DNA of 64,000 nucleotides from Clostridia bacterium. Lineage in GTDB: Bacteria; Bacillota; Clostridia; TANB77; CAG-508. The notes beneath the pieces are model-generated. The model worked only from the letters and a program-made list of their open reading frames with translations. It had not been told where the DNA came from and did no database searches. The translations under genes and the position numbers were made by a program. Positions 11,307-49,615 of this stretch are shown here, one piece after another (within the stretch, counting starts at the first letter, position 1; every line of letters starts with the position of its first letter). The DNA is taken from assembly GCA_029258515.1 (NCBI GenBank), contig JARHYK010000001.1, forward strand, positions 68,450-132,449. Direction: 5' to 3'.

Positions 11307-12293
11307 ATGAAAGATATAATAACATTAGGGATAGAATCAAGTTGTGATGAAACATCAGTAGCAGTAATAAAAAATGGAAGAGAAATATTATCTAACATAA
11401 TAGATACACAAATACCAATACATGAAAAATATGGTGGTGTTGTGCCAGAAATAGCCTCTAGAAATCATATAGAGGCTATTTCTAGAGTAACAAAAAAAGC
11501 AATAAAAGATGCTAATATTTCACTGTTACAAATAGATGCAATAACTCCAACATATGGGCCAGGTTTAGTAGGAGCTCTATTAGTAGGACTATCATATGCA
11601 AAAGCATTAAGTTATGCGATAAAAAAACCATTAGTAGGAGTAAATCATATTCAAGGACATATAGCAGCAAATTATCTAACATATAAAGAATTAAAGCCAC
11701 CATTTATATGTGTAATGACATCAGGAGGAAATACTCAAATTGTAAAGGTAGAAGACTATACTAAATTTCAAGTACTAGGAAAAACGCGTGATGATGCAAT
11801 AGGAGAAGCATTTGATAAAGTAGCAAGAGTAGTAGGATTGGGATATCCAGGAGGACCAAAAGTAGATAAATTAGCTAAAGAAGGAAAACCAAATATAGAA
11901 TTGCCAAAAACTCATTTTGAAAATCTTGATTTTAGCTTTAGTGGAATAAAAACAGCGGTAATAAATTTGCATCATAAAAATCCAGATATAAATAGAGCAG
12001 ATTTATGTGCAAGTTTTCAAAAAACAGTAACAGAAATATTATTAGAAAACACAAAAAAGGCAATTAACCAAACAGGAATAAAAGTAATAGCATTAGCAGG
12101 AGGAGTATCAGCAAATAGTTATATTAGAAAAGAATTTTTAAAATTAGAAAAAGAAGATATAAAAGTATATATGCCAGACTTAAAACTATGTACAGACAAT
12201 GCCGCAATGATAGGATCAGCAGGCTATTATAACTATATTTCAGGAAAAAGAGATAATCTAGATCTAAATGCTGTACCAAACTTAAAACTATAA
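11307..12293 (+). CDS. tsaD: tRNA N6-adenosine threonylcarbamoyltransferase TsaD (Kae1/YgjD)
   Basis: [20 protein letters not shown]... and GVNHIQGH motifs. The start is preferred at 11307 (RBS AGAGGAAAAA) rather than the listed 11283. Confidence 0.9.
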
Positions 12294-12315
12294 TAAAAAG
12301 AAGGTGAATTAAAAT

Positions 12316-13023
12316 ATGTCAATATATGCAATAGGAGATTTACATTTATCATTTAACGAAAACAAACCAATGGACATATTTGGAGAAAATTGGGTAAAAC
12401 ATGAAGAAAAAATAAAAAAAGATTGGTTAAAAAAAGTAAAACAAGAAGATTACGTCTTATTACCAGGAGACTTTTCGTGGTCAATGTATTTACAAAATTC
12501 TTATGCAGATTTTGAATATTTAAATTCACTGCCAGGAAAAAAGATTTTATTAAAAGGAAACCATGATTATTGGTGGACAACAGTTACAAAAATGAAAAAT
12601 TATCTAAAACAAAATAACTTTCAAAATATTGACTTTTTATACAATAACAGCTATGAAATAGAAGGAAATATAATAACAGGAACAAGAGGATGGGTACAAT
12701 CAAACGAGGAAGAAGATAAAAGATTAGTAAAAAGAGAACTAATAAGATTAGAACTATCGCTTCAAGAAGGTATAAAAAAATATGGAAAAGACAAACCAAT
12801 AATAGTAATAATGCACTTCCCACCACTTACAAAATACAATATTCAAAATAATATAAAATCAGAATTTATTAAATTAATGAAAAAATACAATGTAGAAAAA
12901 TGTATATATGGCCATTTACATGGAGCAGCTATAACAGAAGCAATACATGGAAATATTGATGGGATTGAATTACAATTAGTAAGTGCAGATTCATTAGATT
13001 TTAAATTGGCAAAAATAATATAA
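12316..13023 (+). CDS. Calcineurin-like metallophosphoesterase
   Basis: GDLHLS...GDFSW...GNHDYWW...HFPP...GHLH motif series. Confidence 0.7.
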   Translation: MSIYAIGDLHLSFNENKPMDIFGENWVKHEEKIKKDWLKKVKQEDYVLLPGDFSWSMYLQNSYADFEYLNSLPGKKILLKGNHDYWWTTVTKMKNYLKQNNFQNIDFLYNNSYEIEGNIITGTRGWVQSNEEEDKRLVKRELIRLELSLQEGIKKYGKDKPIIVIMHFPPLTKYNIQNNIKSEFIKLMKKYNVEKCIYGHLHGAAITEAIHGNIDGIELQLVSADSLDFKLAKII

Positions 13024-13033
13024 GGAGAAACAA

Positions 13034-15085
13034 ATGCTAGATTTAAAAAAAGATGTAAAATACATAAAAGGAGTAGGACCAAATAGAGTAACATTACTTA
13101 ATAAATTAGGTATATTTACATTAGAAGATTTAATTTCATATTATCCACGAACATATGAAGATAGGAGTAAGCCTAAAACATTGTCAGAATGCGAAGATGG
13201 TTCAGAAAACTTAATAGAAGTGTTAGTAACAAGTAAAATTTTAGAAACAAGATATGGAAGAAAGACAATGCAAAAAGTAATGATAAGAGACGAAAGCACA
13301 GTAGCAGAAGCAATATGGTTTAATCAATCATATCTTAAAACTAAAATAATAGAAGGCAAAAAATATCGTATGTATGGAAAAATAAGCAAAAAATATGGTA
13401 GAATTCAAATATCTTCACCAGTATATGATGAATATGGAACAACTAAAAATACAGGAAGAATTATACCAATATATCCATTAACATATAATTTAACACAAAA
13501 TACATTAAGAAAAATAATGGAGAATGCAGTTAAAGAAGTATATGGTAATATTGGAGAAACTTTACCTGAATATTTAATAAAAAAGAGTTTGTTACAAAAT
13601 ATAAACGAAGCAATAAAAAATATACACTTTCCAAAAGATTTGAAAGAATTTGAAATAGCAAGAAGAAGATTAGTTTTTGAAGAACTATTAATTACTCAAC
13701 TAGCGTTACTAGCTCTAAAAAATAGAAATATATCAGAAGAAAAAGGAATACAGTTTAGTAAAGAATATAAAATAGAAGAAATGATGAAAAGATTTCCATT
13801 TGAACTAACAAATGCACAAAAAAGAGTCTTAAATGAAATTGAAGAAGATATGGAAAAACCTCAAACAATGAATAGATTATTACAAGGGGACGTTGGTTCA
13901 GGGAAAACAGCAGTTGCTATGTGTTCAGCATATAAAGCAGTAAGAAGCGGTTATCAAGCAGCAATAATGGCACCAACAGCAATACTTGCAACTCAACATT
14001 TAGAAAATTTTAATAAGATGTTAGAAGAACTAGGAATAAGATGTGAACTATTAATATCAGGCATTACTAAAAAGAAAAAAGAAGAACTATTAGAAAAATT
14101 AAAAATAGGTGAAATTGATATTTTAATAGGAACCCATGCAATATTAGAAGATAATGTAGAATTTAAAAATCTAGGATTAGTAGTAACAGATGAACAGCAT
14201 AGATTTGGGGTAAAACAAAGAAATAAGATAATAAAAAAAGGAAATAACCCAGATGTATTAGTAATGTCAGCAACACCAATTCCAAGAACATTAGCTTTAA
14301 TACTATATGGAGATTTAGACATTTCAATAATAGATGAATTACCACCAAATAGAAAAAAGATAGAAACATTTGCAGTAACAAAAAGTATGACTGAAAGAGT
14401 AGATAATTTTATAAAAAAACAAATTGAACAAGGAAGGCAAGCATATATAGTATGTCCATTAGTAGAAGAAGGAGAAGATAATTCTTTAAAATCAGTTATA
14501 GAATTAACTGAAAAATATCAAAAAGAAATATTTCCTGAATACAAAATTGAATATTTACATGGGAAAATGAGGCCAAAAGAAAAAGATGAAATAATGCTAA
14601 GATTTAAAAATCATGAAATAGATATTCTAATCTCAACAACAGTAATAGAAGTAGGAGTAGATGTTCCAAATGCTAATATAATGGTAATAGAAGATGCACA
14701 AAGATTTGGATTAGCACAACTTCATCAATTACGTGGAAGAGTAGGAAGAGGAGAATATCAATCATATTGTATTTTAAAATACGAGGGAAATAGCGAAAAT
14801 ACAAGAAAAAGAATGAAAGTAATGTGTGATACAAATAATGGCTTCATAATATCTGAAAAAGACTTAGAATTAAGAGGAAGTGGAGATTTCTTTGGAACAA
14901 TGCAACATGGACTTCCAGAATTCAAAATTGCTAATTTATTTGAAGATATGAATATATTGCAAGTAGTACAAAAAGTAGCTAAAAATATAATTGAGAAAGA
15001 TACAAAACTAGAAAAAGAAGAAAATATAAAATTAAGAAACATCGTAGAGAAAAAATTAGAAATAATTGAGAAAGGTAGTTTATAA
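13034..15085 (+). CDS. recG: ATP-dependent DNA helicase RecG
   Basis: Wedge domain. Helicase motifs GDVGSGKT, DEQHRFG, QLHQLRGRVGRG. 683 aa. Confidence 0.95.
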   Translation: MLDLKKDVKYIKGVGPNRVTLLNKLGIFTLEDLISYYPRTYEDRSKPKTLSECEDGSENLIEVLVTSKILETRYGRKTMQKVMIRDESTVAEAIWFNQSYLKTKIIEGKKYRMYGKISKKYGRIQISSPVYDEYGTTKNTGRIIPIYPLTYNLTQNTLRKIMENAVKEVYGNIGETLPEYLIKKSLLQNINEAIKNIHFPKDLKEFEIARRRLVFEELLITQLALLALKNRNISEEKGIQFSKEYKIEEMMKRFPFELTNAQKRVLNEIEEDMEKPQTMNRLLQGDVGSGKTAVAMCSAYKAVRSGYQAAIMAPTAILATQHLENFNKMLEELGIRCELLISGITKKKKEELLEKLKIGEIDILIGTHAILEDNVEFKNLGLVVTDEQHRFGVKQRNKIIKKGNNPDVLVMSATPIPRTLALILYGDLDISIIDELPPNRKKIETFAVTKSMTERVDNFIKKQIEQGRQAYIVCPLVEEGEDNSLKSVIELTEKYQKEIFPEYKIEYLHGKMRPKEKDEIMLRFKNHEIDILISTTVIEVGVDVPNANIMVIEDAQRFGLAQLHQLRGRVGRGEYQSYCILKYEGNSENTRKRMKVMCDTNNGFIISEKDLELRGSGDFFGTMQHGLPEFKIANLFEDMNILQVVQKVAKNIIEKDTKLEKEENIKLRNIVEKKLEIIEKGSL

Positions 15086-15103
15086 TAAAAGGAAGTATGT
15101 GAA

Positions 15104-15295
15104 ATGTTAAAATTAGTAGTAAAGTTAATATGTATAACAATAATAGCACTAGGAGTTATTTGCATCTTTGATGCACGTAGCATAACAAATAAATTTTTTA
15201 GTTTTGGAGATCAAAATGAAGGTGCAAGTGGATTAAAAATAACAGGTTTTATTATTTCGATAATAGGAGGAATAATTTTAATGTTTTTTAAATAG
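15104..15295 (+). CDS. Small two-TM membrane protein
   Basis: 63 aa, RBS AAAGGAAG, two hydrophobic helices. Confidence 0.45.
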   Translation: MLKLVVKLICITIIALGVICIFDARSITNKFFSFGDQNEGASGLKITGFIISIIGGIILMFFK

Positions 15296-15319
15296 AATAT
15301 AGAAAAATTCAAAAATTAC

Positions 15320-15349
15320 TTGACATTACAAATATAAATATGTTATTAT
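15320..15349 (+). promoter_or_regulatory. Sigma-A type promoter for tRNA-Leu
   Basis: TTGACA (15320-15325), 18-nt spacer, TATTAT (15344-15349). Flanked by the inverted repeat ttacttgaca / tgtcaagtaa. Confidence 0.4.
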
Positions 15350-15369
15350 ATAAATTGTCAAGTAAATAT

Positions 15370-15453
15370 GCGGATGTGGCGGAACTGGTAGACGCGCTGG
15401 TCTTAGGAACCAGTGCCAAAAGCGTGGGGGTTCGAGTCCCTTCATCCGCACCA
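15370..15453 (+). tRNA. tRNA-Leu, anticodon UAG (type II, long variable arm)
   Basis: Acceptor stem gcggatg/catccgc. Anticodon loop cuUAGga. Long variable arm. T-arm gggttcgagtccc. 3' CCA encoded. Confidence 0.9.
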
Positions 15454-15498
15454 AAGTAAGAAAAGCAGAGATTTAAACACTCTGCTTTTTATATGTTT

Positions 15499-15800
15499 TT
15501 AATGCAATTTTAATGCAACCCAATCAAAATACTCAGTTAATTTGAAATCTTCTTGTCCTTCAAATTTATCAAATACACTAGCATAAGTATCTAATGTTGT
15601 TTGTATATTCTTATGTCCCAACTTTTTTTGTAATACTTTTATATTCATTCCAGCTTCTATACACCTAGTTGCATAAGTATGTCTTAGAACATGTGGATGA
15701 ATACGATCAGTAATGCAATTAGTTGCATTAAATTTTTCTAAAAATCTAGCTAAAGTACGGGGAGTAATGCTAGGAAATATAAAAGTATCTGTTTTAGGAA
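15499..15800 (-). pseudogene. Tyrosine recombinase/phage integrase remnant; only the C-terminal catalytic part is retained
   Basis: Minus-strand translation ...[71 protein letters not shown]...* carries HxxR and the catalytic Y region. No N-terminal domain and no start codon. It directly follows the tRNA 3' end. Confidence 0.7.
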
Positions 15801-15916
15801 GATTTGTTAATATTTTTTGTATAATTGGAGTAATTACAATAAAGGCTAAAGAATTGATTATAGAAAAAGTGATTAAAGCATAAAAAACGATAAAAGAGGT
15901 AAATTGATTTTATTGA

Positions 15917-16315
15917 AGGGGAAGCAGGAACTGGAATAAGAGAGAAGAAAAACATCATGAAGCAAGATTAAGGATGACACAAGCAAATTACAACAATATG
16001 AAAAAACATAAAGGAATAGGAGTAAATGAAGTAGGAACAACATTTTCATTTTGCGCACCATATGGAGATGGAAAAAATGAACAACAATGGGGATGGTTTA
16101 GAACACTACAACAAGCAATGTCAGGAACACAAGAATATGGAAAAACATGGGATAATGATTTAGTATTAATAGGAAATAGTGATTATACATTTGTTGTACG
16201 TGGTGGTGATTGCTTTAGTGGCTCTAATGTGGGAGTCTTGTATTCACACGTTACTAATGGCTTTAACTACCACACATATGGATTTCGAGCAGTGTTGGTT
16301 GGGGTTAGTACTTAA
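15917..16315 (+). pseudogene. Orphan 3' cassette encoding the C-terminal ~130 aa of an FGE-sulfatase-like domain, with no start codon or N-terminus. It is a paralog of the 3' end of 20869..22587.
   Basis: About 90% nt identity over the first ~130 nt to 22205..22340 (WNKREEKH...YNNMKKHKGIGVNEVGTTFSF), then a divergent tail ending RGG...GFRAVLV (FGE C-terminal signature). The homology breaks abruptly at ~15920. Confidence 0.6.
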
Positions 16316-16438
16316 AAATATTAAAACAAAACTGCGTAAGTTTTAGTTGGTATATAAACTTTTATATTTGAGCAGATATATTAATTTGTGTTAAATTAAA
16401 AACCTAATTATGATATTTTGTTTATCATAATTAGGTTT

Positions 16439-17071
16439 TTAATTTCGATTTAACTTAATTATATTTCCACTTTTTTCAATAACTCCATCATCCTTTAAGA
16501 GTTTTAATTCTCTCATCATTGCACTTCTATCAATGCTTAGATAATCAGCTAAGTCTGTTAAAGAAAGAGGAAGTTCAAAGGTAGTATTTAAATTTCTAGT
16601 AGAGATTAAAGAAAAATATTCTAATAGCTTATCTCTAATAGATCTTTTAGTAAGTAATTCTATTCTAGTATTAAGTTCAGTAACTTTATTTAATATTAAT
16701 TTCGGAAGCTTTTCTGACAAATTTTGATGAAATTTACAATTGTTTTTACATTTTTGAAATGTTTCGTCATAAATATAGAAGAGAACTTCACAATTAGATC
16801 TTGCTTCGACTAATAATTCATTATTAATAGTTATATTATAAAAAACTTCACCAAATAGAGAATTTTTTGAGAAATGTTGCACTATAGTTCTATTTCCGTT
16901 TAAATCATATCTTACTAAATCAGCTGTTCCAGATACTAATATACATAATTGATTGCGCTTTTGAATGTAAGAGGTAATTGTTTCATTCTTTGAAAAAGAT
17001 TTTACTTGAACTTTGTTACATTTTGTAGAAAAATCATAGATGAAATCTTCTATGCTAAAACTAGTATTCAT
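16439..17071 (-). CDS. Crp/Fnr family transcriptional regulator
   Basis: cNMP-binding beta-barrel plus a C-terminal HTH (LSLTDLADYLSIDRSAMMRELKLLKDDGVI). Start ATG at 17071 with RBS AAAGGAGTGG. The listed 317-aa ORF is an unsupported N-terminal extension. Confidence 0.8.
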   Translation of the reverse strand: MNTSFSIEDFIYDFSTKCNKVQVKSFSKNETITSYIQKRNQLCILVSGTADLVRYDLNGNRTIVQHFSKNSLFGEVFYNITINNELLVEARSNCEVLFYIYDETFQKCKNNCKFHQNLSEKLPKLILNKVTELNTRIELLTKRSIRDKLLEYFSLISTRNLNTTFELPLSLTDLADYLSIDRSAMMRELKLLKDDGVIEKSGNIIKLNRN

Positions 17072-17145
17072 GAACACCACTCCTTTATTATATATAAACA
17101 TTATACAGTAAAAAAAGATAAAAAACAATAAAATGTTGAAAATAT

Positions 17146-17189
17146 CATTGTAACATAATTGTAATATTTTTGTAACACAATTGTAATAT
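17146..17189 (+). repeat. 4 x 11-bp tandem direct repeat (cATTGTAACAt / aATTGTAATAt) in the crp-nrdD divergent intergenic region
   Basis: Copies start at 17146, 17157, 17168 and 17179 with exact 11-bp periodicity. The reverse complement ATATTACAATT is identical to the repeat unit at 26445..26477. Confidence 0.7.
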
Positions 17190-17311
17190 AGCTCAAAACC
17201 CATCAAAATATAGTGATATAGAAAATGATAAATAATTTGTTGCTTTTGCAACAGAAAAACTATAAATTTGATATATAATATGAATATACTTTTTAAGGGA
17301 GGAAATGTAAA

Positions 17312-19438
17312 ATGAAAGTTATTAAAAGAGATGGAAGAGCTGTAGATTATGATAGGGCAAAAATTCAAGTGGCAATTGAAAAAGCAAATCAAGAAGTAAA
17401 ACCTAGAGAAAGAGCATCAAAGGAAGAAATAAAAAGAATTATTCAAACTATAGAAGAGATGAATAAAAAAAGAATGCTAGTAGAAGATATACAAGATATT
17501 ATAGAAGAAAAGTTAATGGAAATAGAAAAATATGAATTAGCTAAAAAATATATAGTATATAGATATACAAGAGCATTAGTAAGAAAACAAAATACGACTG
17601 ATGAAACAATATTAGGAATAATAAGAAATGATAATAAAGAACTAGCAGAAGAAAATTCTAATAAAAACACAATGCTTGCATCAACACAAAGAGATTATAT
17701 AGCAGGTGAAGTGTCTAGAGATTTAACAAAAAGATTATTGTTGCCTGAAAAAATAGCAAAAGCCGATGCAGAAGGAATTTTACATTTTCACGATGCGGAT
17801 TATTTTGTACAACCAATATTTAATTGTTGCTTAGTAAATATTGAAGATATGCTAGATAATGGAACTGTAATGAATGGAAAAATGATAGAAAGTCCAAAAA
17901 GTTTTCAAGTTGCTTGTACAGTAACAACACAAGTTATTGCAGCAGTGGCAAGTAATCAATATGGAGGACAATCAGTAGATTTAATTCATTTAGGAAAATA
18001 TTTAAGAAAAAGTTATGAAAAATTCAAAAAAGAAATTGAACAAAAATATAAAGAAAAATTGTCAAAAGAAACAATAGAAGATTTGGTTCAAGATAGATTA
18101 AAAACTGAATTAAAAGCTGGAGTACAAACTATTCAATATCAAATAAATACATTAATGACAACAAATGGACAATCTCCATTCGTAACATTATTTTTACACT
18201 TAGAAGAAAATGACCCATATATAAAAGAAAATGCAATGATAATAGAAGAAGTATTAAGACAAAGATATGAGGGAATAAAAAATGAAGCAGGAATATATGT
18301 AACACCAGCATTTCCAAAACTTGTATATGTTTTAGATGAATTCAATAGTTTAAAAGGCGGAGAATATGATTATTTAACAAAACTTGCAGTTAAATGTTCA
18401 GCTAAAAGAATGTATCCAGATTATATATCAGCTAAAAAAATGAAAGAAAATTATGAAGGAAATGTATTTAGCCCAATGGGATGTAGAAGTTTCTTATCTC
18501 CATGGAAAGATGAAAATGGCGAATATAAATTTGAAGGAAGATTCAACCAAGGAGTGGTAAGTATTAATTTACCACAAGTAGCAATAATTGCAGATGGAGA
18601 TGAAAAAAAATTCTGGGATTTATTAGAAGAAAGATTAGAATTATGTAAGGAAGCTTTAATGTGTAGACATTATGCATTGTTAGGGACACATTCAGATATA
18701 AGTCCAATTCATTGGCAATATGGCGCAATAGCACGCCTTAAAAAAGGTGAAAAAATAGATAAATTGTTATATGGAGGATATTCTACGATGTCATTAGGCT
18801 ATATAGGAATATATGAAACGACAAAGTTAATGACAGGAGTATCTCATACAGATCCAAAAGGACATGAATTTGCAATAAGAATAATGAAATGTTTAAGAAA
18901 AGCAACAGATAAATGGAAAGAAGAAACAAATATTGGATTTGCATTATATGGAACACCAGCAGAAAGTCTATGCTATAAATTTGCAAGAATTGATAAAGAA
19001 AAATTTGGAACAATTAAAGATGTAACTGATAAAGGATATTATACAAATTCTTATCACGTAGATGTTAGAGAAAAAATAGATGCATTTGAAAAGTTATCAT
19101 TCGAAAGTGAGTTCCAAAAAATATCATCAGGTGGAGCTATATCATATATAGAAATACCAAATATGCAAAACAATATAGAAGCCTTAGAAACAGCAGTGAA
19201 GTTTATTTATGATAATATACAATATGCAGAATTTAATACAAAATCAGATTTTTGCCATGAGTGTGGATTTGATGGAGAAATTATAATAAATAAAGATAAT
19301 GAATGGGAATGCCCAAACTGTGGAAATAAAGATCGTTCAAAAATGACGGTAGTAAGAAGAACATGTGGATATTTAGGAGAAAATTTTTGGAATGCAGGAA
19401 AAACTAAAGAAATAAAACAAAGAGTAATGCATTTGTAG
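17312..19438 (+). CDS. nrdD: Anaerobic ribonucleoside-triphosphate reductase (class III RNR)
   Basis: ATP-cone N-terminus. Glycyl-radical C-terminus RTCGYLG. Zn ribbon CxxC...CxxC. Confidence 0.95.
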   Translation: MKVIKRDGRAVDYDRAKIQVAIEKANQEVKPRERASKEEIKRIIQTIEEMNKKRMLVEDIQDIIEEKLMEIEKYELAKKYIVYRYTRALVRKQNTTDETILGIIRNDNKELAEENSNKNTMLASTQRDYIAGEVSRDLTKRLLLPEKIAKADAEGILHFHDADYFVQPIFNCCLVNIEDMLDNGTVMNGKMIESPKSFQVACTVTTQVIAAVASNQYGGQSVDLIHLGKYLRKSYEKFKKEIEQKYKEKLSKETIEDLVQDRLKTELKAGVQTIQYQINTLMTTNGQSPFVTLFLHLEENDPYIKENAMIIEEVLRQRYEGIKNEAGIYVTPAFPKLVYVLDEFNSLKGGEYDYLTKLAVKCSAKRMYPDYISAKKMKENYEGNVFSPMGCRSFLSPWKDENGEYKFEGRFNQGVVSINLPQVAIIADGDEKKFWDLLEERLELCKEALMCRHYALLGTHSDISPIHWQYGAIARLKKGEKIDKLLYGGYSTMSLGYIGIYETTKLMTGVSHTDPKGHEFAIRIMKCLRKATDKWKEETNIGFALYGTPAESLCYKFARIDKEKFGTIKDVTDKGYYTNSYHVDVREKIDAFEKLSFESEFQKISSGGAISYIEIPNMQNNIEALETAVKFIYDNIQYAEFNTKSDFCHECGFDGEIIINKDNEWECPNCGNKDRSKMTVVRRTCGYLGENFWNAGKTKEIKQRVMHL

Positions 19439-19478
19439 AAAGAAGTATCTCCTCTTTCTACAACGAAAGGAGCAAGTT

Positions 19479-20003
19479 ATGAATTATGCAGATATAAAAA
19501 AAGTAGATGTCGCAAATGGTGAAGGAGTAAGAGTATCAGTTTTTGTTAGTGGGTGTAATCATCATTGTAAAGGATGTTTTAATCAATGCGCTTGGGATTT
19601 TAATTATGGAAATAAATTTACAGATGAAGAAATTGATAAAGTTATAAATTATCTTGACCATGATTATATATCAGGACTTTCATTATTAGGAGGAGAACCA
19701 CTTGAAAAACAAAACCAAGAAGGATTACTACCACTTGTAAAAAAAGTAAAAGAAAAATTTCCAAATAAAAACATATGGTGTTATACAGGATTTGATTTTG
19801 AAAAAGATGTAGTAGGAAAGATGGCATCAAACAATGAAACAACAAAAGAATTATTAAAATATTTAGATGTTGTAGTTGATGGGAAATTTGAAGAAGATAA
19901 AAAAGACTTAAAGCTTAAATTCAGAGGTTCATCAAATCAAAGAATATTGGACGTTCAAGAGACTTTGAAAGAAAATCAACTTGTAAATTATACTTTGAGA
20001 TAA
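19479..20003 (+). CDS. nrdG: Anaerobic RNR activating protein (radical SAM)
   Basis: CNHHCKGC radical-SAM cluster motif. 174 aa. Directly downstream of nrdD. Confidence 0.9.
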   Translation: MNYADIKKVDVANGEGVRVSVFVSGCNHHCKGCFNQCAWDFNYGNKFTDEEIDKVINYLDHDYISGLSLLGGEPLEKQNQEGLLPLVKKVKEKFPNKNIWCYTGFDFEKDVVGKMASNNETTKELLKYLDVVVDGKFEEDKKDLKLKFRGSSNQRILDVQETLKENQLVNYTLR

Positions 20004-20208: not shown

Positions 20209-20289
20209 GTGCTAGAAAGGATTACAATATAAATTGCTAGTCGAAAAATATAAAAAATAACAATATGAGTTAGATTAGGTAACAAGCTA

Positions 20290-20790
20290 TTTGATAAAAA
20301 CAGTGAATGGGAAGCTGTAGTATATTTATGTTATAGTCAGTATGAAAATAAAAGTTATTGGTATGATTTATATAAAGGACAAGGAACTAAAACGAAACAG
20401 ACGAAGGAGCGTATAATAGAACAGATAATAGTCATGATCAGAATACTGAAAATGGAAATTTAAATTGGAAATATGAAAGTTTATGGGATATATATGAAGT
20501 AAGTGAAGAAGAAAAAACAAATAAAATAAAACTAAAAGATGGAACAATATTAACTCAAAATGAATTATGGGACTGGAATAAGAGAGAAGAAAAACATCAT
20601 GAAGCAAGGTTAAGGAAGACAGAGGCAAATTACAACAATATGAAAAAACATAAAGGAATAGGAGTAAACGAAGTAAGAACAACATTTTTATTTTATGCAC
20701 AATATTCATCAGGAACAGAAAAACAATAGTCAATTATGGGAATGGTTTATTAAAGCAGTAAAATCTATTTACAAAAATTAAATATAAAGA
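20290..20790 (+). pseudogene. Degraded partial copy of the FGE-like gene (20869..22587), with internal deletions and frameshifts
   Basis: Nucleotide blocks match 21745..21940 and 22110..22340 of the intact gene (e.g. gaatgggaagctgtagtatatttatgttatag, ...ggactggaataagagagaagaaaaacatcatgaagca...aacaatatgaaaaaacataaaggaataggagtaaa). Reading frame broken. Confidence 0.55.
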
Positions 20791-20868: not shown

Positions 20869-22587
20869 ATGTTAAAAAAGTACAAAAGTGAAAAAGGTAT
20901 AACATTAATAGCATTAGTGATAACAATAATAGTATTGCTAATACTAGCTGGAGTAGCAATAGCAAGTCTAACAGGTGATAATGGAATAATAACAAAAGCA
21001 CAAGAAGCAAAGAAAAAAACAGAAGAAGCAAAGAAAGAAGAAGAAAAACAGTTACAAAACATGCTAGATAAAATAACAAGTGAAGTGCCATCAGAAGAAG
21101 GATATAACAATAATAAAAATGTAAATAATCCAAAAACAACCAAAGGAATGATCCTAATAAAATGGAACGGAACAGATTGGGTAGTGTGTTCAAAAGATGA
21201 CACAGAATGGTATAGTTATGATAGTACAAAAAAATGGGCAAATATAATGTTAAGTGATGGAAAATATAAAGAAGGAAAAGTAAGAGAAGGACAAATAATA
21301 AAAGAAAATGAACTAGGAAGTATGTATGTGTGGATACCAAGATATGCATATAAAATAGCAGGAGAAAAGAATATAGAAGTAACATTTTTAAAAGGAAATA
21401 CAAATATAGATAAAGAAGGAATTGAATATACAACAAGTGAAGATGTAGATACAAAAACAACAAAAATAGTACACCCGGCATTTAATTTAGGAGGAGTAGA
21501 ATTAAGTGGAATATGGGTAGCAAAATTTGAAACAAGTGGAACAAACAAAGATGGAAAAGCAGTAGGAAATGCAAGTAGCACTTCATCAGCTGAACAATAT
21601 AAACCAGATGAAACAACAATAGCAAAAAGCTTGCCAAATAAAATAAGTTGGAGACATATAACAGTAGGAGAAAGTCAAAGAAGAAGTATGGATATAGCTA
21701 CAACAGCAAAAGAAAAATATGGTTTAGATTATACAAATAGTCATTTAATGAAAAATGATGAATGGGGAGCAGTAGCATATTTATGTTACAGCCAATATGG
21801 AAATGTGCCAAAAATAAATAGTGTAGGAAATTATAATAGTTATTGGTATGATTTATATACGGGTCAAGGACCAAAAACAGCAACAGATGAAGGTTGGTAT
21901 AATAGAACAGACAATAGTCATGATTACAATACTGAAAATGGAATATTAGCAAGTACAACAGGAAATATAACGGGAATATACGATATGAGTGGAGGTTCAT
22001 GGGAAAGAGTAGCAGGATATTTAGATAATGGAAATAGTAACTTAAACAATTATGGGAAAAGTGCAGATGGAAGTATAAAATATTTTGAAAATGGAAAATT
22101 GAATCCAAACTATGAAAAATTATGGAATAAATATGAAGTAAGTGAAGAAGAAAGAACAAATAAAATATCAATGGGAGATGGAACAACATTAACTCAAAAC
22201 GAATTGTGGGATTGGAATAAAAGAGAAGAAAAGCATCAAAAAGCAAGATTAAGAATAACAGAAGAGATATACAATAATATGAAAAAACATAAAGGGATAG
22301 GAGTAAATGAAGTAGGAACAACATTTTCGTTTTATGCTCCGTATGGAGATGGAAAAAATGGACAACCATGGGGATGGTTCAGAACAGTAGCACAAGCAGT
22401 AGTAGGAAAAGAAGAATATGGAAGAGCATGGAACAATGATTTAGTGCTAATAGGTCATATCGTCTGTCCGTTTGTGCTGCGTGGTAGCTATTGCAATAAT
22501 GGTACTGATGCAGGTGTACTGTGCTCAAATATTACTAGTGGTTTGAGTTACGATCGCTACGGGTTTCGCTCAGTATTGGTAATTTAG
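20869..22587 (+). CDS. Type-IV-pilin-like (class III signal peptide) N-terminus fused to a C-terminal FGE-sulfatase/SUMF1-like (C-type-lectin-fold) domain; putative modular minor pilin
   Basis: N-terminus KGITLIALVITIIVLLILAGVAIASLTGDNGII is near-identical to the pilA N-termini at 29548 and 30042. FGE-like motifs NDEWGAVAY, GIYDMSGGSWE and C-terminal RGSYC...YGFRSV. RBS AAAGGAAAG. Confidence 0.75.
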   Translation: MLKKYKSEKGITLIALVITIIVLLILAGVAIASLTGDNGIITKAQEAKKKTEEAKKEEEKQLQNMLDKITSEVPSEEGYNNNKNVNNPKTTKGMILIKWNGTDWVVCSKDDTEWYSYDSTKKWANIMLSDGKYKEGKVREGQIIKENELGSMYVWIPRYAYKIAGEKNIEVTFLKGNTNIDKEGIEYTTSEDVDTKTTKIVHPAFNLGGVELSGIWVAKFETSGTNKDGKAVGNASSTSSAEQYKPDETTIAKSLPNKISWRHITVGESQRRSMDIATTAKEKYGLDYTNSHLMKNDEWGAVAYLCYSQYGNVPKINSVGNYNSYWYDLYTGQGPKTATDEGWYNRTDNSHDYNTENGILASTTGNITGIYDMSGGSWERVAGYLDNGNSNLNNYGKSADGSIKYFENGKLNPNYEKLWNKYEVSEEERTNKISMGDGTTLTQNELWDWNKREEKHQKARLRITEEIYNNMKKHKGIGVNEVGTTFSFYAPYGDGKNGQPWGWFRTVAQAVVGKEEYGRAWNNDLVLIGHIVCPFVLRGSYCNNGTDAGVLCSNITSGLSYDRYGFRSVLVI

Positions 22588-26620: not shown

Positions 26621-28267
26621 ATGCCAAGCTGTCTAGGATTATATATAGAAAACAACTTAATAAAATATGCAAAAGTTTCAAAGGAAAAAGATGTAAAAAA
26701 AGTTGAAACTTATGGTGTAAAATTTTATACAAAGCTAGAAGATGGAATAAAACAAATAATAGATGAAACATATAGTTATAAAATACCAATTTGTATAAAT
26801 TTAACAAAGGAAACATATAACTATTTTGATATGTTTGCGTTATTAAAGAAAACAGACCTAGAAAAGGCAATAAAAACAGAATTTGACTCTTTTTGTACAG
26901 ATAAAGGATTTAATTCAAATGCACTAGAAGGAAGATATGCAGTAGTAGAAAAATTAAATGATAAAGAAAGATTAAAAGTAATATATATATCTACAAATAA
27001 AATAGAATTAAATAAAAAAGTTCAAATGTTTGAAGAATATAATTTGACTAATGTAGTACCATTGCCAATAGCGATAACAACACTATTAGATGAAGAAGAA
27101 ACTAGCAAAGAAAACTCAATAATAGTAAATATAGAAGAAAAAACAACACTTACAACAATAATAAATAGAAAAATATATAATGTTAAAGTATTAGATGAAG
27201 GAAGCGAAAAATTCTTAAGCAATATAAATTTAAAAGAAAATTCATATTCAAAAGCATATGAGATGTGTAAAGAAACAACTATATATACATCAGAAGGAAG
27301 AGAACTGGGAAATATAGAAACAGGATATTTAGAAGATATAATGCCTACATTATATTCGATAGTTGGACAAGTTCAAAAAACATTAAATGAAAATATGGAA
27401 AAAATTTCGAAAATATATATATCAGGAACAGCAGCATTAATAAATAATATTGATTTATATTTCCAAGAATATTTAGAGGGAATAAAATGTGAAATATTAA
27501 AACCTAATTTCATTAAAAAATCTCCAAACATAAATATAAAAGACTATATTGAGGTAAATTCAGCAATATCATTAGGTTTAATGGGCTTAGGAGAAGGCTT
27601 AAATGAAATGAATTTTAAAGCAAAATCATTTAGAAACACAATAAAATCACTGCTAACAGCAGAGATTGTACCAAATAAAAATAAAAAAATTAATAATAAA
27701 GTAACAAAAAATAAAAAGTCAATTAATTTTAAAATAAATAATGATTTGAAAATGCCATTAGATAGTACAGAAAAAATATTATTAAATGTTTTAGCAACTT
27801 TAATTATAATGTTTGTAGTATTTAGCGGATTTTCAACAATGCTGAAAAAACAATTTGAAAAGAAAATATCAGAAACAGAAGCAACTATTACAAGTACAAA
27901 ACAAGAAATACAAATGATAGAACAAGACAGTAGCAACATAAAACAGCAAAAAGATATATATACAAGTTATATAGAAGAATTAAGCAAAACAACACAAATA
28001 GCAGAAGAAAAAAACAAAGTTAAAGGTGCAATACCAGGACTATTAAATCAACTTATGAATATTATTCCAAAAGGTGTTCAAATTAAATCAATAGAAAACT
28101 TAAATGGTGGAAAAGTTGAAATATTAGTTCAATCAAAGCAATATGAACAAATAGCGTTCTTTATAGGAAGTATAAAAACAGATGTAATATTAACAGAGGT
28201 AATTTCGACATCAGGACAAAAAAATAATGATATAATCACTGTAAAAATAGAAGGAGTGTTACCATGA
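26621..28267 (+). CDS. pilM: Type IV pilus assembly protein PilM (actin-like ATPase fold) fused to a PilN-like TM/coiled-coil C-terminal region
   Basis: N-terminus LGLYIENNLIKYAKV... PilM-like. After residue ~370 comes a single TM (ILLNVLATLIIMFVVFSGF) and a coiled-coil periplasmic part, as in PilN. 548 aa. Confidence 0.7.
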   Translation: MPSCLGLYIENNLIKYAKVSKEKDVKKVETYGVKFYTKLEDGIKQIIDETYSYKIPICINLTKETYNYFDMFALLKKTDLEKAIKTEFDSFCTDKGFNSNALEGRYAVVEKLNDKERLKVIYISTNKIELNKKVQMFEEYNLTNVVPLPIAITTLLDEEETSKENSIIVNIEEKTTLTTIINRKIYNVKVLDEGSEKFLSNINLKENSYSKAYEMCKETTIYTSEGRELGNIETGYLEDIMPTLYSIVGQVQKTLNENMEKISKIYISGTAALINNIDLYFQEYLEGIKCEILKPNFIKKSPNINIKDYIEVNSAISLGLMGLGEGLNEMNFKAKSFRNTIKSLLTAEIVPNKNKKINNKVTKNKKSINFKINNDLKMPLDSTEKILLNVLATLIIMFVVFSGFSTMLKKQFEKKISETEATITSTKQEIQMIEQDSSNIKQQKDIYTSYIEELSKTTQIAEEKNKVKGAIPGLLNQLMNIIPKGVQIKSIENLNGGKVEILVQSKQYEQIAFFIGSIKTDVILTEVISTSGQKNNDIITVKIEGVLP

Positions 28268-29001
28268 AAAAACTATTAATTAGTCTTGCAATTGCTTTAG
28301 TTTTAATTCTAACGTCTTTAACAATAGTTAAAGGTATACATGTTGGGAATTTACCAATACTAGGAATAAAACAAATAAAAGAAGAAAATGCCAAACTAGA
28401 AAATAAAATAAAAGAAGCAACAACATTAGTAAGTGTATCATATCCACAAAAATTACAAAATTTAGACAATAACTTGAAAGAAATGAAAAATGAAAAACAA
28501 AAATATGAAGATATGATGACAACAGGCAATCAAAGTGAAATAAAATCAACAATCCAAGAACAAGTATATACAATAGATAAGTTATGGGAAAAATTAGGAA
28601 TGCTTGCAAGATATGAAGGATTAAATGCAACTTTTGAACCAATGCCAGGCACAAGAATGCCGATAAAAAGAAATAATGAACAACCAGATTATAATTATTA
28701 TGATATAAAATTCACTTTACAAGGTGGATATCCAAATATTTCTTTATATATAGCTGACATCGAAAATAATTCACAATTAGGCTTTAGAATTGATAATTTT
28801 AAAATGGTACCAGATGAGAAAAATGTCCAAGCAACATTTACTTGTAAAGATATAGCAATAAAAGGAGTATCAAATGATAAAATACTACTAGAAGAAGATA
28901 AAAATAAAGAACAACAACAAAAAAATGATGATATGCCAGATGATACACAAAAAAATACAACTACAATGCCTGAAACAACTAATGAAGGTATGGTACCATA
29001 A
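28264..29001 (+). CDS. pilO: PilO-like pilus assembly protein (N-terminal TM plus coiled coil)
   Basis: Start overlaps the pilM stop (ATGA). TM ISLAIALVLILTSLTIV then coiled coil. Its position in the operon matches PilO. Confidence 0.55.
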   Translation: MKKLLISLAIALVLILTSLTIVKGIHVGNLPILGIKQIKEENAKLENKIKEATTLVSVSYPQKLQNLDNNLKEMKNEKQKYEDMMTTGNQSEIKSTIQEQVYTIDKLWEKLGMLARYEGLNATFEPMPGTRMPIKRNNEQPDYNYYDIKFTLQGGYPNISLYIADIENNSQLGFRIDNFKMVPDEKNVQATFTCKDIAIKGVSNDKILLEEDKNKEQQQKNDDMPDDTQKNTTTMPETTNEGMVP

Positions 29002-29025
29002 AATAAAAGAAAAGGAGTTATTAAA

Positions 29026-29469
29026 ATGACTAAAAATATTTTAAAAGAAATAATAATCATTTTATTATTAACTTTAGCAATAATACTTTTGATAGGAGTA
29101 TTACTATATGATTATGTACCAATGAATAAAGTAATACCAGAAAAAGTAAAATATACAGCAAGTGAAGAAGTAAAACAAATATCAACAGAATTAAATGAAA
29201 AAAAAGAAGAAATACCAATAACATCATATACAGTAACTTCAACAGATTTAAACGACTATAAAAAAGTAAAAGAATATATTCCAGGAAGAAAAAATCCGTT
29301 TGGCACAATAGAAGAACAAGTAGAAAATAATAAAGAGACATCAGGGCAAGGAGAAACAACAAATGCAACAACAAATACAACAACAAATACAACAACAAAT
29401 AAAAAAAATAACAATACTACTAACAACAAAGAAACAACAAATTATTGGCCAGACAAACAAATAAAATAG
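29026..29469 (+). CDS. Pilus-operon membrane-anchored protein with a Thr/Asn-rich repeat tail (PilP-like position)
   Basis: N-terminal TM. (TTNTTTN)n low-complexity C-terminus. RBS AAAGGAG. Confidence 0.4.
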   Translation: MTKNILKEIIIILLLTLAIILLIGVLLYDYVPMNKVIPEKVKYTASEEVKQISTELNEKKEEIPITSYTVTSTDLNDYKKVKEYIPGRKNPFGTIEEQVENNKETSGQGETTNATTNTTTNTTTNKKNNNTTNNKETTNYWPDKQIK

Positions 29470-29547
29470 ATTTTATAATTATCTTTATATGAAATAAAAA
29501 TATAAAGATATCACAAATAAAATATGCAAAAGAAAAGGGGTGAAAAT

Positions 29548-30015
29548 ATGAAAAATAATCAAAAAGGTATTACACTTGTAGCACTAGTAATAACAATTAT
29601 AGTATTATTAATTTTAGCAGGTGTAACAATAGCAGCATTATCAGGAGATAATGGCATATTAAAAAGAGGGAAAGAATCAAAAGTACAAACAAATATTGCA
29701 AATGCGAAAGATTTAATAAGTTTAGAAGTTTCAGAACATATAACAACATTTTATAATGAAAAATATGTAGTCAATGCTTCAAGTGATGCAGATCTTTCAA
29801 CAGCAGGAGAAAATATAGGTTGGTTTGTAGGATTAAAAATGCAAAAATCTAAAGCAGCAGGAAATGGACAAGCAAGCAATGTAATAAAAACAGTAACTCC
29901 AGGAGCATCAACAAAAATTGAAACAAATGTAAAAGATGCAAATGGTGCAGCTTTAACAGCAACATTAGATAGCAATGGAAAAATCACATGGGCAGGAGAT
30001 GTTATGCAAAAATAG
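29548..30015 (+). CDS. pilA: Type IV major pilin (prepilin with class III signal peptide), copy 1
   Basis: MKNNQKG|ITLVALVITIIVLLILAGVTIAALSGDNGIL. RBS GGGGTG. The likely start is 29548, not the listed 29524. Confidence 0.8.
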   Translation: MKNNQKGITLVALVITIIVLLILAGVTIAALSGDNGILKRGKESKVQTNIANAKDLISLEVSEHITTFYNEKYVVNASSDADLSTAGENIGWFVGLKMQKSKAAGNGQASNVIKTVTPGASTKIETNVKDANGAALTATLDSNGKITWAGDVMQK

Positions 30016-30041
30016 TAAAAATATAATAGGAGGAAAATAAA

Positions 30042-30527
30042 ATGAAAAATAATCAAAAAGGTATTACACTTGTAGCATTAGTAATAACAATTATAGTATT
30101 ATTAATTTTAGCAGGTGTAACAATAGCAGCATTATCAGGAGATAATGGTATATTAAAAAGAGGAAAAGAAGCAAAAGTACAAACAAATGTAGCTAATGCA
30201 AAAGATTTAATCAGTTTGGAAGTTTCAGAAAATATAACAACATTTTACAACGAAAAATATGTAGTTGATAATTCAAAAGACGCAAATCTTACAACAGCAG
30301 GTGAAAACATGGGATGGTACGTAGCATTAAAAATGCAAGCTTCTAAAACAGCAGGAAATGGACAAGCAAGTAGCGTAATAGCTTCAATTACTCCAGCTAG
30401 TACAGCAGAAGGAACAAGTGTAATTACATCAAATGTAAAAGATGCTAAAGGACAAACTTTAAAAGCAACACTTGATAAAAATGGAAAAATCACATGGTCA
30501 GGAGATGCTTTAACAAACGAACAATAA
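30042..30527 (+). CDS. pilA: Type IV major pilin, copy 2 (tandem paralog, ~75% identical)
   Basis: Identical N-terminal 45 aa to copy 1. Divergent C-terminal globular part. RBS AGGAGG. Confidence 0.8.
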   Translation: MKNNQKGITLVALVITIIVLLILAGVTIAALSGDNGILKRGKEAKVQTNVANAKDLISLEVSENITTFYNEKYVVDNSKDANLTTAGENMGWYVALKMQASKTAGNGQASSVIASITPASTAEGTSVITSNVKDAKGQTLKATLDKNGKITWSGDALTNEQ

Positions 30528-30552
30528 TATAAACTAGTATACTAAATTATAT

Positions 30553-30579
30553 AGGCATATGCATGAAATGTATATGCCT
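30553..30579 (+). terminator. Hairpin (attenuator or partial terminator) downstream of the pilin genes
   Basis: aggcatatgcat-gaa-atgtatatgcct stem-loop. Weak U-tail. Confidence 0.4.
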
Positions 30580-30617
30580 TAAATTATAAAAATATGATAA
30601 AGGAGAACAAGGGGAAA

Positions 30618-31433
30618 ATGGATATAATATTTTACATATTTATATTTGTAATAGGGATATTATTTGGAAGTTTTTATACATTATGCGTATATAGAATACC
30701 AAAAACAGAAGATATAACACATACACGTTCATATTGCCCAAACTGTGGACATAAATTAGGCTTTTTTGACCTAATACCAGTGTTTAGCTATATCTTTTTA
30801 GGAGGAAAATGTAGATATTGCAAAGAAAAAATAAGACCAAGATATTTTATATTAGAGTGCCTATCTGGATTATTTTTTGTGGTAATTGCATATTTAATGA
30901 ACTTCAATTTACAAAATCTAACAATAAATAGTATTATTAACTTTTCATTTACAGTCTTATACTTTACATTTATAATATTAATGTCAGGAATAGATAAAGA
31001 ATATAGAAAAATAGAAAAAAGTGTAACAATATATGGAATTATTATATCTATAATGTATATGGTATATCTATACATAGTAGAAAAAGTTAATATACATAGA
31101 TATGCTATATATCTTGTTTGCTATATCTTAATGTTAGCAGTAGATTCAATAACATTAAAAAAATCAGCAAAAGATTGTTACTTAAATGGAATAATATTTA
31201 CACTAATAGCAATGTCAGTGTTTACACAAGGTAAAACAGCTTTATTAACATTAATAATAGTAGGATTATCAATATTAATTTATATAGGAATAAAAAAAAT
31301 AAATATAAAAACAAAGAAGCAAAGAGTAGAAAAAATAAAAATAGGAAACAAACTGACATTAGGATATTGCTTAGGAATAGCAAATATTTGTGTACTAATA
31401 TCAACACTAATTATCAAAAAATTTTTAATATAA
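30618..31433 (+). CDS. pilD: Prepilin peptidase PilD (A24 family)
   Basis: CPNCGHKL...CRYCKEK zinc-binding N-terminal domain. Multi-TM. Start 30618 follows RBS AAAGGAG. Confidence 0.85.
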   Translation: MDIIFYIFIFVIGILFGSFYTLCVYRIPKTEDITHTRSYCPNCGHKLGFFDLIPVFSYIFLGGKCRYCKEKIRPRYFILECLSGLFFVVIAYLMNFNLQNLTINSIINFSFTVLYFTFIILMSGIDKEYRKIEKSVTIYGIIISIMYMVYLYIVEKVNIHRYAIYLVCYILMLAVDSITLKKSAKDCYLNGIIFTLIAMSVFTQGKTALLTLIIVGLSILIYIGIKKINIKTKKQRVEKIKIGNKLTLGYCLGIANICVLISTLIIKKFLI

Positions 31434-31444
31434 AGAAGGTTAAT

Positions 31445-31891
31445 ATGAATTTTAAAAGTGAAAAAGGAATAACAGGTATAGATATAACGCTATCCATAAT
31501 ATTAATAACGATATTTATAGGAATTTTAGTAACACTATCATTTAATATAGAAACAAAAGTAAAAGAAACAGGAAGAAATGCTGAAGCTTTATATTATGCA
31601 ATAAATTCAATAGAACAAGTAAAAGGCTTAAATTTTAACGATTTACCTAAAACTACAGATCAAGTAAATAATAAAATACCAAGCCTAGAAGATGGATATG
31701 TCAAAAATAATATAGGGAAAGAAACCCCATATTATAGAACAACAGAAGTTATAGACTACACTCAAATTCCAGAAAACCAACAAAAAAATGCACAGCCAGA
31801 TGTAGCGAAAAAAATAACAGTAACAATATCATATAAAGACAAAGAAAAAGACAAAAATATAAATTTATCAGTTGTAAAGGTTAAAGAATAA
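31445..31891 (+). CDS. Minor pilin-like protein
   Basis: MNFKSEKG|ITGIDITLSIILITIFIGILVTL class III signal-like N-terminus. RBS GAAGG. Confidence 0.6.
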   Translation: MNFKSEKGITGIDITLSIILITIFIGILVTLSFNIETKVKETGRNAEALYYAINSIEQVKGLNFNDLPKTTDQVNNKIPSLEDGYVKNNIGKETPYYRTTEVIDYTQIPENQQKNAQPDVAKKITVTISYKDKEKDKNINLSVVKVKE

Positions 31892-31904
31892 GAAGGGAGA
31901 AAAT

Positions 31905-32345
31905 ATGAAAAACGAAAGAGGTATAACAACATCATCAGTAATTATATATGTAATAGTTGTATTAGTAGTATTAGCAACACTAGCAACAATTTCAACATAT
32001 TTTCATAAGCAAATAGAAACAGCGATATTTAAAGAAAAAAGTGCCAAAAACTTTACAACATTTATGAGCTATTTTGCACAAGACATACAAGAAGAAGGAA
32101 ACGGAATAACAAATGATAACATAAAAAATCAAGAAACAGCTAAAATAAAATTTACCAATGGAAATCAATATAATTATTCACTAGAAAATAAAAGTATATA
32201 TAAAAATAATGTAAAAATAGCAGATGATGTAGAATATTGTTCTTTTACGATAGATACAAATATACCAAATAAAAAATCTATAACATTAAATTTTATATCA
32301 GAAAACTTTAACAAAAATATTACCTTTTATATCAAAGAAAAATAA
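31905..32345 (+). CDS. Minor pilin-like protein
   Basis: MKNERG|ITTSSVIIYVIVVLVVLATLA N-terminus. RBS GAAGGGAG. Confidence 0.55.
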   Translation: MKNERGITTSSVIIYVIVVLVVLATLATISTYFHKQIETAIFKEKSAKNFTTFMSYFAQDIQEEGNGITNDNIKNQETAKIKFTNGNQYNYSLENKSIYKNNVKIADDVEYCSFTIDTNIPNKKSITLNFISENFNKNITFYIKEK

Positions 32346-32428
32346 TACAAAATAACAAAAAAACAACAAAAAAAATAAAAATATAGTATAATATAAACGA
32401 ACAACACAAATGAAAGGAGCGAAAAATA

Positions 32429-34066: not shown

Positions 34067-34086
34067 ACAAAAGGGGAAGAGAAAAC

Positions 34087-35199: not shown

Positions 35200-35201
35200 T
35201 A

Positions 35202-43811: not shown

Positions 43812-44288
43812 ATGGAAGAGAAAGAAGTTATCTTAACACAAGAAGGATACGATAAGTTAGAAGAAGAATTAAACTATTTAAAAACAGAAAAAAGAGCAGA
43901 AATTGCAGATAGAATAAAAGTAGCTTTAGGATTTGGAGATTTATCAGAAAACTCTGAATACGATGAAGCAAAAAATGCACAAGCAAAAAACGAAGTTAAA
44001 ATTGCAGAATTAGAAAATAAAGTAAGACATGCAAAAATTATAGATGAAAGTGAAATTGATACTGAAACAGTACAAATAGGAAATGTTGTAAAAGTTCATG
44101 ATTTATCATTTGATGAAAAAATTGAATATACAATAGTAGGATCAACAGAAGTTAATCTATTAGAAAACAAAATATCTAATGAATCTCCTTTAGGAGCAGC
44201 TCTTTTAGGTGCTAGAAAAAACCAAACAGTAGAAGTAAATGCACCAGCAGGAATTATGAAATATAAAATTTTATCAATTGAAAAATAA
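43812..44288 (+). CDS. greA: Transcription elongation factor GreA
   Basis: 158 aa. Coiled-coil N-terminus plus FKBP-like C-terminus. Confidence 0.9.
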
Positions 44289-44338
44289 ATATAATAATAA
44301 AGCACAACTAATATATATAGTTGTGCTTTTAAAAAATG

Positions 44339-49596: not shown

Positions 49597-49615
49597 TTTA
49601 TAAAAAATAAAAATA

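Follow-up and report, generated by a model that had tools for sequence, protein, structure and literature searches.

A prophage integrase remnant at tRNA-Leu(UAG) beside a truncated variable-protein gene in a Clostridia bacterium

Introduction

Remnants of cryptic or defective prophages are known from tRNA genes, with integrase pseudogenes lying beside the attachment site (attB) in the tRNA, as in P4-like, P22/lambdoid-type and Firmicute prophages. Here we describe a locus of this kind in a 64,000-nucleotide stretch of DNA from Clostridia bacterium (GTDB lineage Bacteria; Bacillota; Clostridia; TANB77; CAG-508; assembly GCA_029258515.1, contig JARHYK010000001.1, positions 68,450 to 132,449 of the forward strand), called the window in the following, in which tRNA-Leu(UAG) is followed by the 3′ third of a phage tyrosine integrase gene and then by a gene fragment, fragA, that corresponds to the 3′ end of an intact gene for a 572-aa protein further downstream. 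As in the known remnants, the integrase gene is convergent with the tRNA 3′ end at a distance of some tens of nucleotides, the probable attachment core lies in the 3′ half of the tRNA, decay has left the tRNA-proximal end only, and the same tRNA is reused, even in tandem (locus L098 of a relative). Unlike them, the window shows one junction only, with neither the distal attachment site (attR) nor cargo.

The 572-aa protein leads to a second group of known systems, the diversity-generating retroelements (DGRs), whose variable proteins with a C-type lectin/formylglycine-generating enzyme (FGE)-like fold include Mtd of a Bordetella phage, TvpA of Treponema and TaqVP of Thermus (PMC5758913; bioRxiv 10.1101/432187). 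In relatives of the window the C-terminal ~140 nt of the corresponding genes are a variable region that is paired with a template and mismatched at adenines, a reverse transcriptase (RT), bAvd and a MutS-like accessory gene lie nearby, and the motif RGG...C...G...GFR.VLV is found. In contrast, template repeat, RT and Avd are all missing from the 64 kb that surround the copies in the window, and the protein has a type IV pilin-like N-terminus. A third comparison is offered by the integrative and conjugative elements of Bacteroides at tRNA-Lys (bioRxiv 10.1101/2024.11.15.621889), as two relatives (L015, L018) have an integrase-bearing island at tRNA-Leu(UAG) with a DGR that diversifies a pilus-type protein; the window differs in that its integrase stump belongs to a phage type which is not seen together with DGRs, and in that no DGR machinery is left.

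An earlier note, made from the letters of the window alone, had read the locus as a tRNA-targeted island worn down to an FGE-module cassette and had concluded that this variable-module system arrived by horizontal transfer. Of this reading our analysis supports the decayed tRNA-targeted element, but neither the cassette as its remaining content nor the transfer: the annotation should read tRNA-Leu(UAG), prophage integrase pseudogene and pseudogene fragment of a DGR variable-protein gene, and the region should not be taken for an island that brought in the variable-protein system. The feature is an ordinary and well explained one that will be unsurprising to specialists.

Results and Discussion

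tRNA-Leu(UAG) is the sole tRNA of the region according to both ARAGORN and Rfam, and a convergent integrase reading frame ends 45 nt from it (Table 1). This frame is open on the minus strand from 15909 to a stop codon at 15499–15501 (136 codons), and its match to the Pfam family Phage_integrase (PF00589; E = 1.4e-15; 57.9 bits at a cut-off of 27.1) covers profile positions 92–169 of 172, while the NCBIfam XerA/XerC/XerD and integron-integrase models match it solely via their C-terminal ends. A truncated tyrosine integrase lacking N-terminus and start, 45 bp from the tRNA on the opposite strand, is what the earlier note had proposed, and ARAGORN, Rfam and the PF00589 profile bear it out; the fragment, put there at about 100 codons with HxxR and Tyr, has about 113 and a second His besides. 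The retained catalytic residues are HxxR (HVLRH), the second His (LGH) and the Tyr (DTYASVF). In the alignment the homology begins past the Lys hairpin, and of the full set R-K-H-R-H/W-Y the box-I Arg (TGMRxGE) and the Lys hairpin have thus been lost through truncation. There is no same-frame homology to N-terminal SAM-like or arm-binding domains 5′ of 15840 and no start codon, the only start in the frame being an internal ATG that gives a 49-aa open reading frame (ORF). Because start codon, Arg-I, Lys and N-terminal domains are all missing, the fragment can be classified by its sequence as a non-functional gene remnant.

A protein search with the fragment returned exclusively short homologs (75–236 aa). 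A family of small complete recombinases can nevertheless be rejected, as these homologs are remnants or catalytic-domain-only gene calls and 371-aa phage integrases exist. Cultured phages (Streptococcus Javan prophages and satellites, Clostridium phage phiCp-B) have integrases that share only 27–29% identity with this lineage, and the nearest relatives of the fragment are uncultured gut prophage contigs. These were found in a scan of IMG/VR with an alignment of integrase homologs, which gave 421 confirmed relatives. In the closest contigs (L126–L134, predicted prophages of 13–39 kb) a complete 371-aa integrase, 71% identical to the window fragment across all 113 residues, lies at the contig end and stops ~55 nt from a tRNA-Leu(UAG) on the opposite strand that is 95–98% identical to that of the window. 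Beyond this tRNA comes a homolog of the 63-aa gene that stands between recG and the tRNA in the window. The genes near the integrase match ImmA-like metalloprotease, repressor, Mu Gam-like, Erf and NinB families and make up the lysogeny and recombination module of a temperate phage. With these intact counterparts the idea of a tRNA-targeted element reduced by deletion is strongly supported, and it can be sharpened to that of a prophage remnant.

The same origin holds for the DNA between tRNA and integrase. The spacer with its hairpin (−13.7 kcal/mol, z = −3.6) and the sequence TTAATGCAATTTTAATGCAACCCAAT, which contains the integrase stop, are common to the window and to L128, L131, L098, L093 and L103, all of them sites that carry this integrase. 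The integrase-less relatives L017, L020 and L026 have a different hairpin and none of these elements. As the flank is common to sites with this integrase and not to integrase-less relatives, its sequence marks the tRNA-proximal flank of the window as phage-derived. A copy of tRNA positions 33–84 (52 nt) serves as attR in L034 and adjoins the integrase in L131, and from these two copies we infer the recombination core given in Table 1, which is probably of phage attP origin. The present-day tRNA-Leu gene would then owe its 3′ half and its terminator probably to a phage. At the 5′ side, the promoter-like site upstream of the gene matches 11 of 12 consensus positions, a consensus match only. The variable arm of the tRNA (15414–15424) reads GCCAAAAGCGT in the window and GCCAACGGCGT in all relatives and prophage-associated copies; the GCCAAAAGCGT change abolishes the loop-closing pair of this arm, with the Rfam score still at 57.7 bits.

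What survives in the window is the attL side of a prophage alone, made up of the reconstituted 3′ part of the tRNA, of spacer and hairpin of the phage type, and of the 3′ end of the integrase gene. The direct repeat (attR) that the earlier note suggested looking for downstream is absent, as no second copy of the tRNA 3′ end was found anywhere in the 64 kb by exact 11-mers, by 28-mers with up to three mismatches or by blastn-short. There is no phage homology besides the integrase fragment in 15.3–23 kb, and no base-composition signal of an island, the GC content being 0.25–0.31 throughout 11–26 kb.

To place the site among its relatives we retrieved 80 species-level genomes (GTDB) via their RecG, which is 69–80% identical to that of the window. 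The order recG, 63-aa gene, tRNA-Leu(UAG) is kept in 45 of them. The synteny comparison proposed in the earlier note holds upstream of the tRNA in these 45 and fails downstream, where none of the relatives is syntenic with the window. At least 14 of the 45 have a recombinase of the tyrosine or serine type next to the tRNA, and large serine recombinases adjoin it in six loci. An intact 9-kb island with a 529-aa integrase is present in L034, where the attR described above copies the last 52 nt of the tRNA; a 32-nt copy of the tRNA is found in L039, and in L024 a 407-aa integrase, 56% identical to the fragment, occupies the same position. In L098 the integrase of the window type is full-length but frameshifted, and a second island has inserted between it and the tRNA, leaving a 17-nt tRNA copy. 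Remnants of the window-type integrase beside the tRNA differ in truncation point and neighbours, those of L103, L093 and L013 being shorter. The ratio of nonsynonymous to synonymous substitution rates (dN/dS) among these fragments is 0.04–0.32 pairwise at a dS of 0.8 or more, and by this low ratio at high dS they diverged as working genes and were truncated independently; by their sequences they are not a single ancient conserved relic. tRNA-Leu(UAG) downstream of recG is thus attB for several integrating elements of this uncultured gut clade and a recurrent integration hotspot for at least three recombinase types, which is also why assemblies break at this tRNA. In seven relatives (L002, L003, L008, L032, L040, L044, L060) tRNA-Leu(UAG) lies near recG on the strand opposite to it, and these cases therefore point to local inversions at the hotspot.

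The second stump, fragA, is the real counterpart of the orphan cassette of the earlier note, as it matches the 3′ end of the 572-aa gene. Its frame is open from 15917 (130 codons), with neither a pilin N-terminus nor a credible start. Over the shared part it is 80–84% identical to the intact gene in DNA and 65–67% in protein, with ~89% in a conserved stretch and ~65–70% over the last 150 nt, and its dN/dS against the full gene is ortholog-like (0.22–0.31). The identity of both stumps is demonstrated, and both are unable to function. A metagenome scan with fragA gave no match. A further fragment, fragB, lies on the far side of a crp-nrdD-nrdG module in direct orientation with fragA. The two share a stretch of ~130 nt at ~95% identity and resemble each other more than either resembles the intact gene.

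Table 1: Features of the window around tRNA-Leu(UAG), in window coordinates.
Feature	Position	Strand	Remarks
Promoter-like site, TTGACA / 18-nt spacer / TG / TATTAT	15320..15349	+	~20 nt 5′ of tRNA-Leu
tRNA-Leu(UAG), intact	15370..15453	+	ARAGORN and Rfam (57.7 bits)
Inferred recombination core, last 52 nt of tRNA-Leu from anticodon loop to CCA	15402..15453	+	
Terminator-like hairpin with U-run, phage-associated type	15456..15494	+	inside the 45-nt spacer 15454–15498
3′ third of phage tyrosine integrase gene, ~113 codons and stop	15499..15840	−	homology to complete integrases
Junction segment, 86 nt	15841..15926	.	between integrase fragment and fragA
fragA, 3′ end of a DGR variable-protein paralog (equivalent to residues ~448–572)	15927..16315	+	variable-region equivalent ~16150–16315
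Perfect 23-bp inverted repeat, bidirectional terminator-like hairpin	16393..16445	.	between the stops of fragA and the convergent crp-like gene
Crp/Fnr-type regulator gene, nrdD, nrdG	16439..20003	−, +, +	context; core chromosomal module, not island cargo
fragB, decayed, frameshifted middle fragment (equivalent to residues ~290–499) of another or the same paralog	20281..20730	+	
Intact 572-aa family gene	20869..22587	+	pilin-like N-terminus; C-terminal region equivalent to DGR variable region

The nature of the family follows from its relatives. The 572-aa protein has at least 7,972 matches, and up to three of the listed homologs are found on a single 1.6-Mb contig. In L083, a 1.35-Mb genome, a homolog of 78% identity is followed 303 nt downstream of its 3′ end by a template repeat, and the same locus (10001–16912) holds an RT, bAvd and a MutS_I-domain protein, with an IS21 insertion between template repeat and RT. 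Of the 22 mismatches between template and variable region 20 are at template adenines. Because of this adenine-biased repeat pair together with RT and bAvd, the sequences identify the family as a DGR variable protein in the relatives, and the variable module of the cassette would be its variable region.

As to the fold, the 572-aa protein has no PF03781 (FGE-sulfatase) match even at E up to 10, its AlphaFold2 model (pLDDT 46) is too poor for use, and the only profile match of the C-terminal fold in the PDB, to TaqVP (5VF4), is weak (E = 0.026). A match to PF03781 (E = 9e-6) does exist in L070, in a pilin-like protein that is encoded beside recG and more distant. The pilin-like N-terminus is indicated by a weak N_methyl match in Pfam and weak PDB matches (geopilin, PilA), and this segment is 59–61% identical to two pilins encoded at 29.5–30.5 kb of the window. 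Little seems to have been written on DGR targets in which the N-terminus resembles a type IV pilin; in one survey G-type pilin figures among the variable-region domains with scarce representation (PMC11661182).

A role of fragA as the DGR template repeat of the full gene was rejected, as the two show 98 differences over all four bases, only 38 of them with A in fragA, and as they stay homologous for 230 nt on the upstream side of the variable region and beyond the stop codon. Nor do fragA and the full gene look like current co-targets of one template, as both differ from the L083 template at ~30% of the non-adenine sites. The two differ from each other throughout and show no sign of current homogenisation.

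We therefore arrive at a model in which temperate phages of these small-genome, AT-rich gut Clostridia use tRNA-Leu(UAG) as their chromosomal attachment site. The integrase would recombine the phage attP, which would carry a copy of about the last 52 nt of the tRNA, with the tRNA 3′ half, which would place the integrase gene convergent with the tRNA about 45–60 nt downstream and replace the native 3′ flank by the phage spacer and hairpin. A later deletion, running rightwards from about integrase codon 259, would then have taken out the rest of the prophage together with attR and would have ended in host DNA, at about codon 447 of a neighbouring pilin-like DGR variable-protein gene, so that the two stumps would now be joined via the 86-nt segment. 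We infer a single and recent deletion because both stumps keep uninterrupted frames and the dN/dS of fragA is ortholog-like, whereas the older fragB is frameshifted. fragA would accordingly be a host gene cut by the deletion that removed the prophage, and to this reading as a whole we assign a probability of roughly 78%.

That fragA is most likely the truncated host gene of a hypervariable pilin-like surface protein and not phage cargo is suggested by the distribution of the family. Homologs occur at integrase-free chromosomal sites (L084), and directly downstream of recG and the 63-aa gene L042 and L070 have a pilin-like gene that is a member or a relative of the family. Among 2.9 million viral contigs, those of the prophages with this integrase included, a pattern scan gave no relative, and the visible 10 kb of the matching prophages hold lysogeny and recombination genes only. 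The intact 572-aa gene, moreover, is separated from the integrase scar by crp-nrdD-nrdG. The FGE cassette as the remaining content of an island is thus not supported, the family being multi-copy, a DGR variable protein in relatives, chromosomal and missing from the viral-contig pattern scan; nor is an arrival of the variable-module system by horizontal transfer supported, with homologs at integrase-free sites and the intact copy beyond the crp-nrdD-nrdG module.

Several points weigh against this explanation. The viral-contig scan consisted of two peptide patterns and could miss diverged relatives, and in L015 and L018 the islands at this tRNA do include a DGR with a pilin-like target. The 86-nt junction segment has no homology to the integrase, the DGR-target family or any other sequence fetched; it matches neither partner and more than one event may be involved. 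The 58 nt between two independent short-read contigs, at 15959–16018, cross a repeat that neither of them spans. Finally, in none of the 80 relatives is the DNA that follows the tRNA in synteny with the window, which leaves no empty-site comparison. A conspecific genome with the prophage intact or the site empty was not found either, and the ancestral right-hand flank is thus unseen.

The alternative that survives best, and which we consider improbable, is that fragA is leftover cargo and that the variable-protein system did arrive on a tRNA-targeted element. fragA abuts the integrase stump, and the islands at tRNA-Leu(UAG) in L015 (13590–22025) and L018 (12424–22025) combine a 534–554-aa integrase with a complete-looking DGR module, consisting of a pilin-like target of 442–443 aa, a MutS-like accessory gene, bAvd and a template repeat, in which 24 of 27 mismatches in L018 are at adenines. 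The L024 island, with its integrase of 56% identity, has a pilin-like gene 3.6 kb on, and DGR-bearing integrative elements at tRNA genes are known in Bacteroides (bioRxiv 10.1101/2024.11.15.621889). These islands, however, use a different integrase family, or a different target that resembles the one of the window in its pilin N-terminus only. The gene content of the prophages with the window-type integrase, the missing viral match, the copies of the family at integrase-free sites and the position of the intact copy beyond the core crp-nrdDG module, as set out above, all speak for the truncated host gene and not for cargo.

Two side observations belong to these DGR loci. In L018 a 46-nt copy of the 5′ part of the tRNA lies immediately upstream of a diverged tRNA. 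In three of three DGR loci (L083, 16505–16912; L018, 20357–20821; L015, 21470–21925) a small MutS_I-only protein adjoins bAvd. This protein corresponds to the accessory class that Wu et al. 2018 (PMC5758913) call 'MSL' and is thus already known.

That the arrangement is an assembly artefact, a misjoin at the ~40-nt repeats of the three family copies, is very unlikely. An independent Logan contig (L081) reproduces 15104–15959 exactly (100% identity), including the tRNA, the integrase fragment and the start of fragA, and another Logan contig reproduces 16018–20601; both end in exact repeats of 38–45 nt shared among the copies. The Logan contigs do break exactly at these repeats (15959, 16018, 20601), exact-protein look-ups for conspecific contigs led to one sample only, the contigs of which again end in repeats, and two contigs of GCA_029782595.1, an assembly that holds related genes, have exact 141-nt tandem duplications. 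On the other hand, a single independent contig runs at 100% identity across the junction of the integrase stump with fragA and 33 nt into the latter, the exact repeats are far below read length with fragA-specific variants between them, and no tandem artefacts of the k-mer type occur in the window. The duplications of GCA_029782595.1 (L085/L086) affect genes of the family as well as ABC-transporter genes next to them. Most likely they are artefacts of the assembler at k=141, by which predicted protein lengths are inflated (e.g. P0002, 665 aa).

We attach equally little weight to the idea that fragA, and formerly fragB, are silent donor cassettes for the expressed pilin-like gene in the manner of pilS/pilE, the DGR machinery having been lost or moved and the same repeats having driven the crp-nrdDG relocation described below; if it were true, homologous recombination would swap the ligand-binding end of the expressed pilin-like protein. 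Hardly credible is a present or former cassette-switching system (shufflon-like inversion or pilS/pilE-like conversion) made up of the recombinase stump with fragA and fragB, for which one may quote an expressed pilin-like gene with variable C-terminus and two promoterless partial copies within 7 kb, a tyrosine recombinase sequence beside one of these, the 130 open codons of fragA and the uniformly short homologs of the integrase fragment, but these homologs are remnants or catalytic-domain-only calls from a lineage with complete 371-aa integrases, the stump has no Arg-I, Lys or start codon, the cassettes are direct and not inverted, with no inverted repeats connecting them and with fragB frameshifted, DGRs account for the variation of the family in relatives, and no recent conversion tracts are visible between fragA and the full gene, which differ throughout.

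The surroundings of the prophage remnant have been rearranged as well, and the variable-protein family behaves as a set of dispersed repeats around which the chromosome has done so. In the closest relatives (L188, L190), whose NrdD is 94% identical, crp-nrdD-nrdG stands between greA and folD; other chromosomal contexts are found elsewhere. In the window fragA and fragB bracket this essential module in direct orientation, and no such flanks exist in L188 and L190. Since the module lies without flanks between greA and folD in these two, it must have moved in the lineage of the window. At 43812–44338 of the window, a terminator follows greA and the next gene is deoD, on the opposite strand. In L188 and L190 crp-nrdD-nrdG comes after greA, and this greA-deoD site is the other breakpoint of the relocation. 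A simple insertion model predicts the opposite order of the fragments to the one found (fragA, a 3′ part, on the left and fragB, a middle part, on the right of the module) and was discarded, while a tandem duplication with later deletions could account for it.

Another site of gene loss may be 49565–51600. In L084 the order is rpe, a member of the family, a DUF8173 gene and nth; in the window rpe (48906–49565) is followed by ~2 kb of short ORFs, among them an nth-like fragment (50152–50508, minus strand), with no family member.

A type IV pilus-like or competence-pseudopilus-like operon is encoded at 26621–36545. It contains the two pilin genes mentioned above as a near-identical tandem (29524–30015 and 30042–30527), of which the ~56 N-terminal residues are the part that is 59–61% identical to the N-terminus of the DGR-target-type protein.

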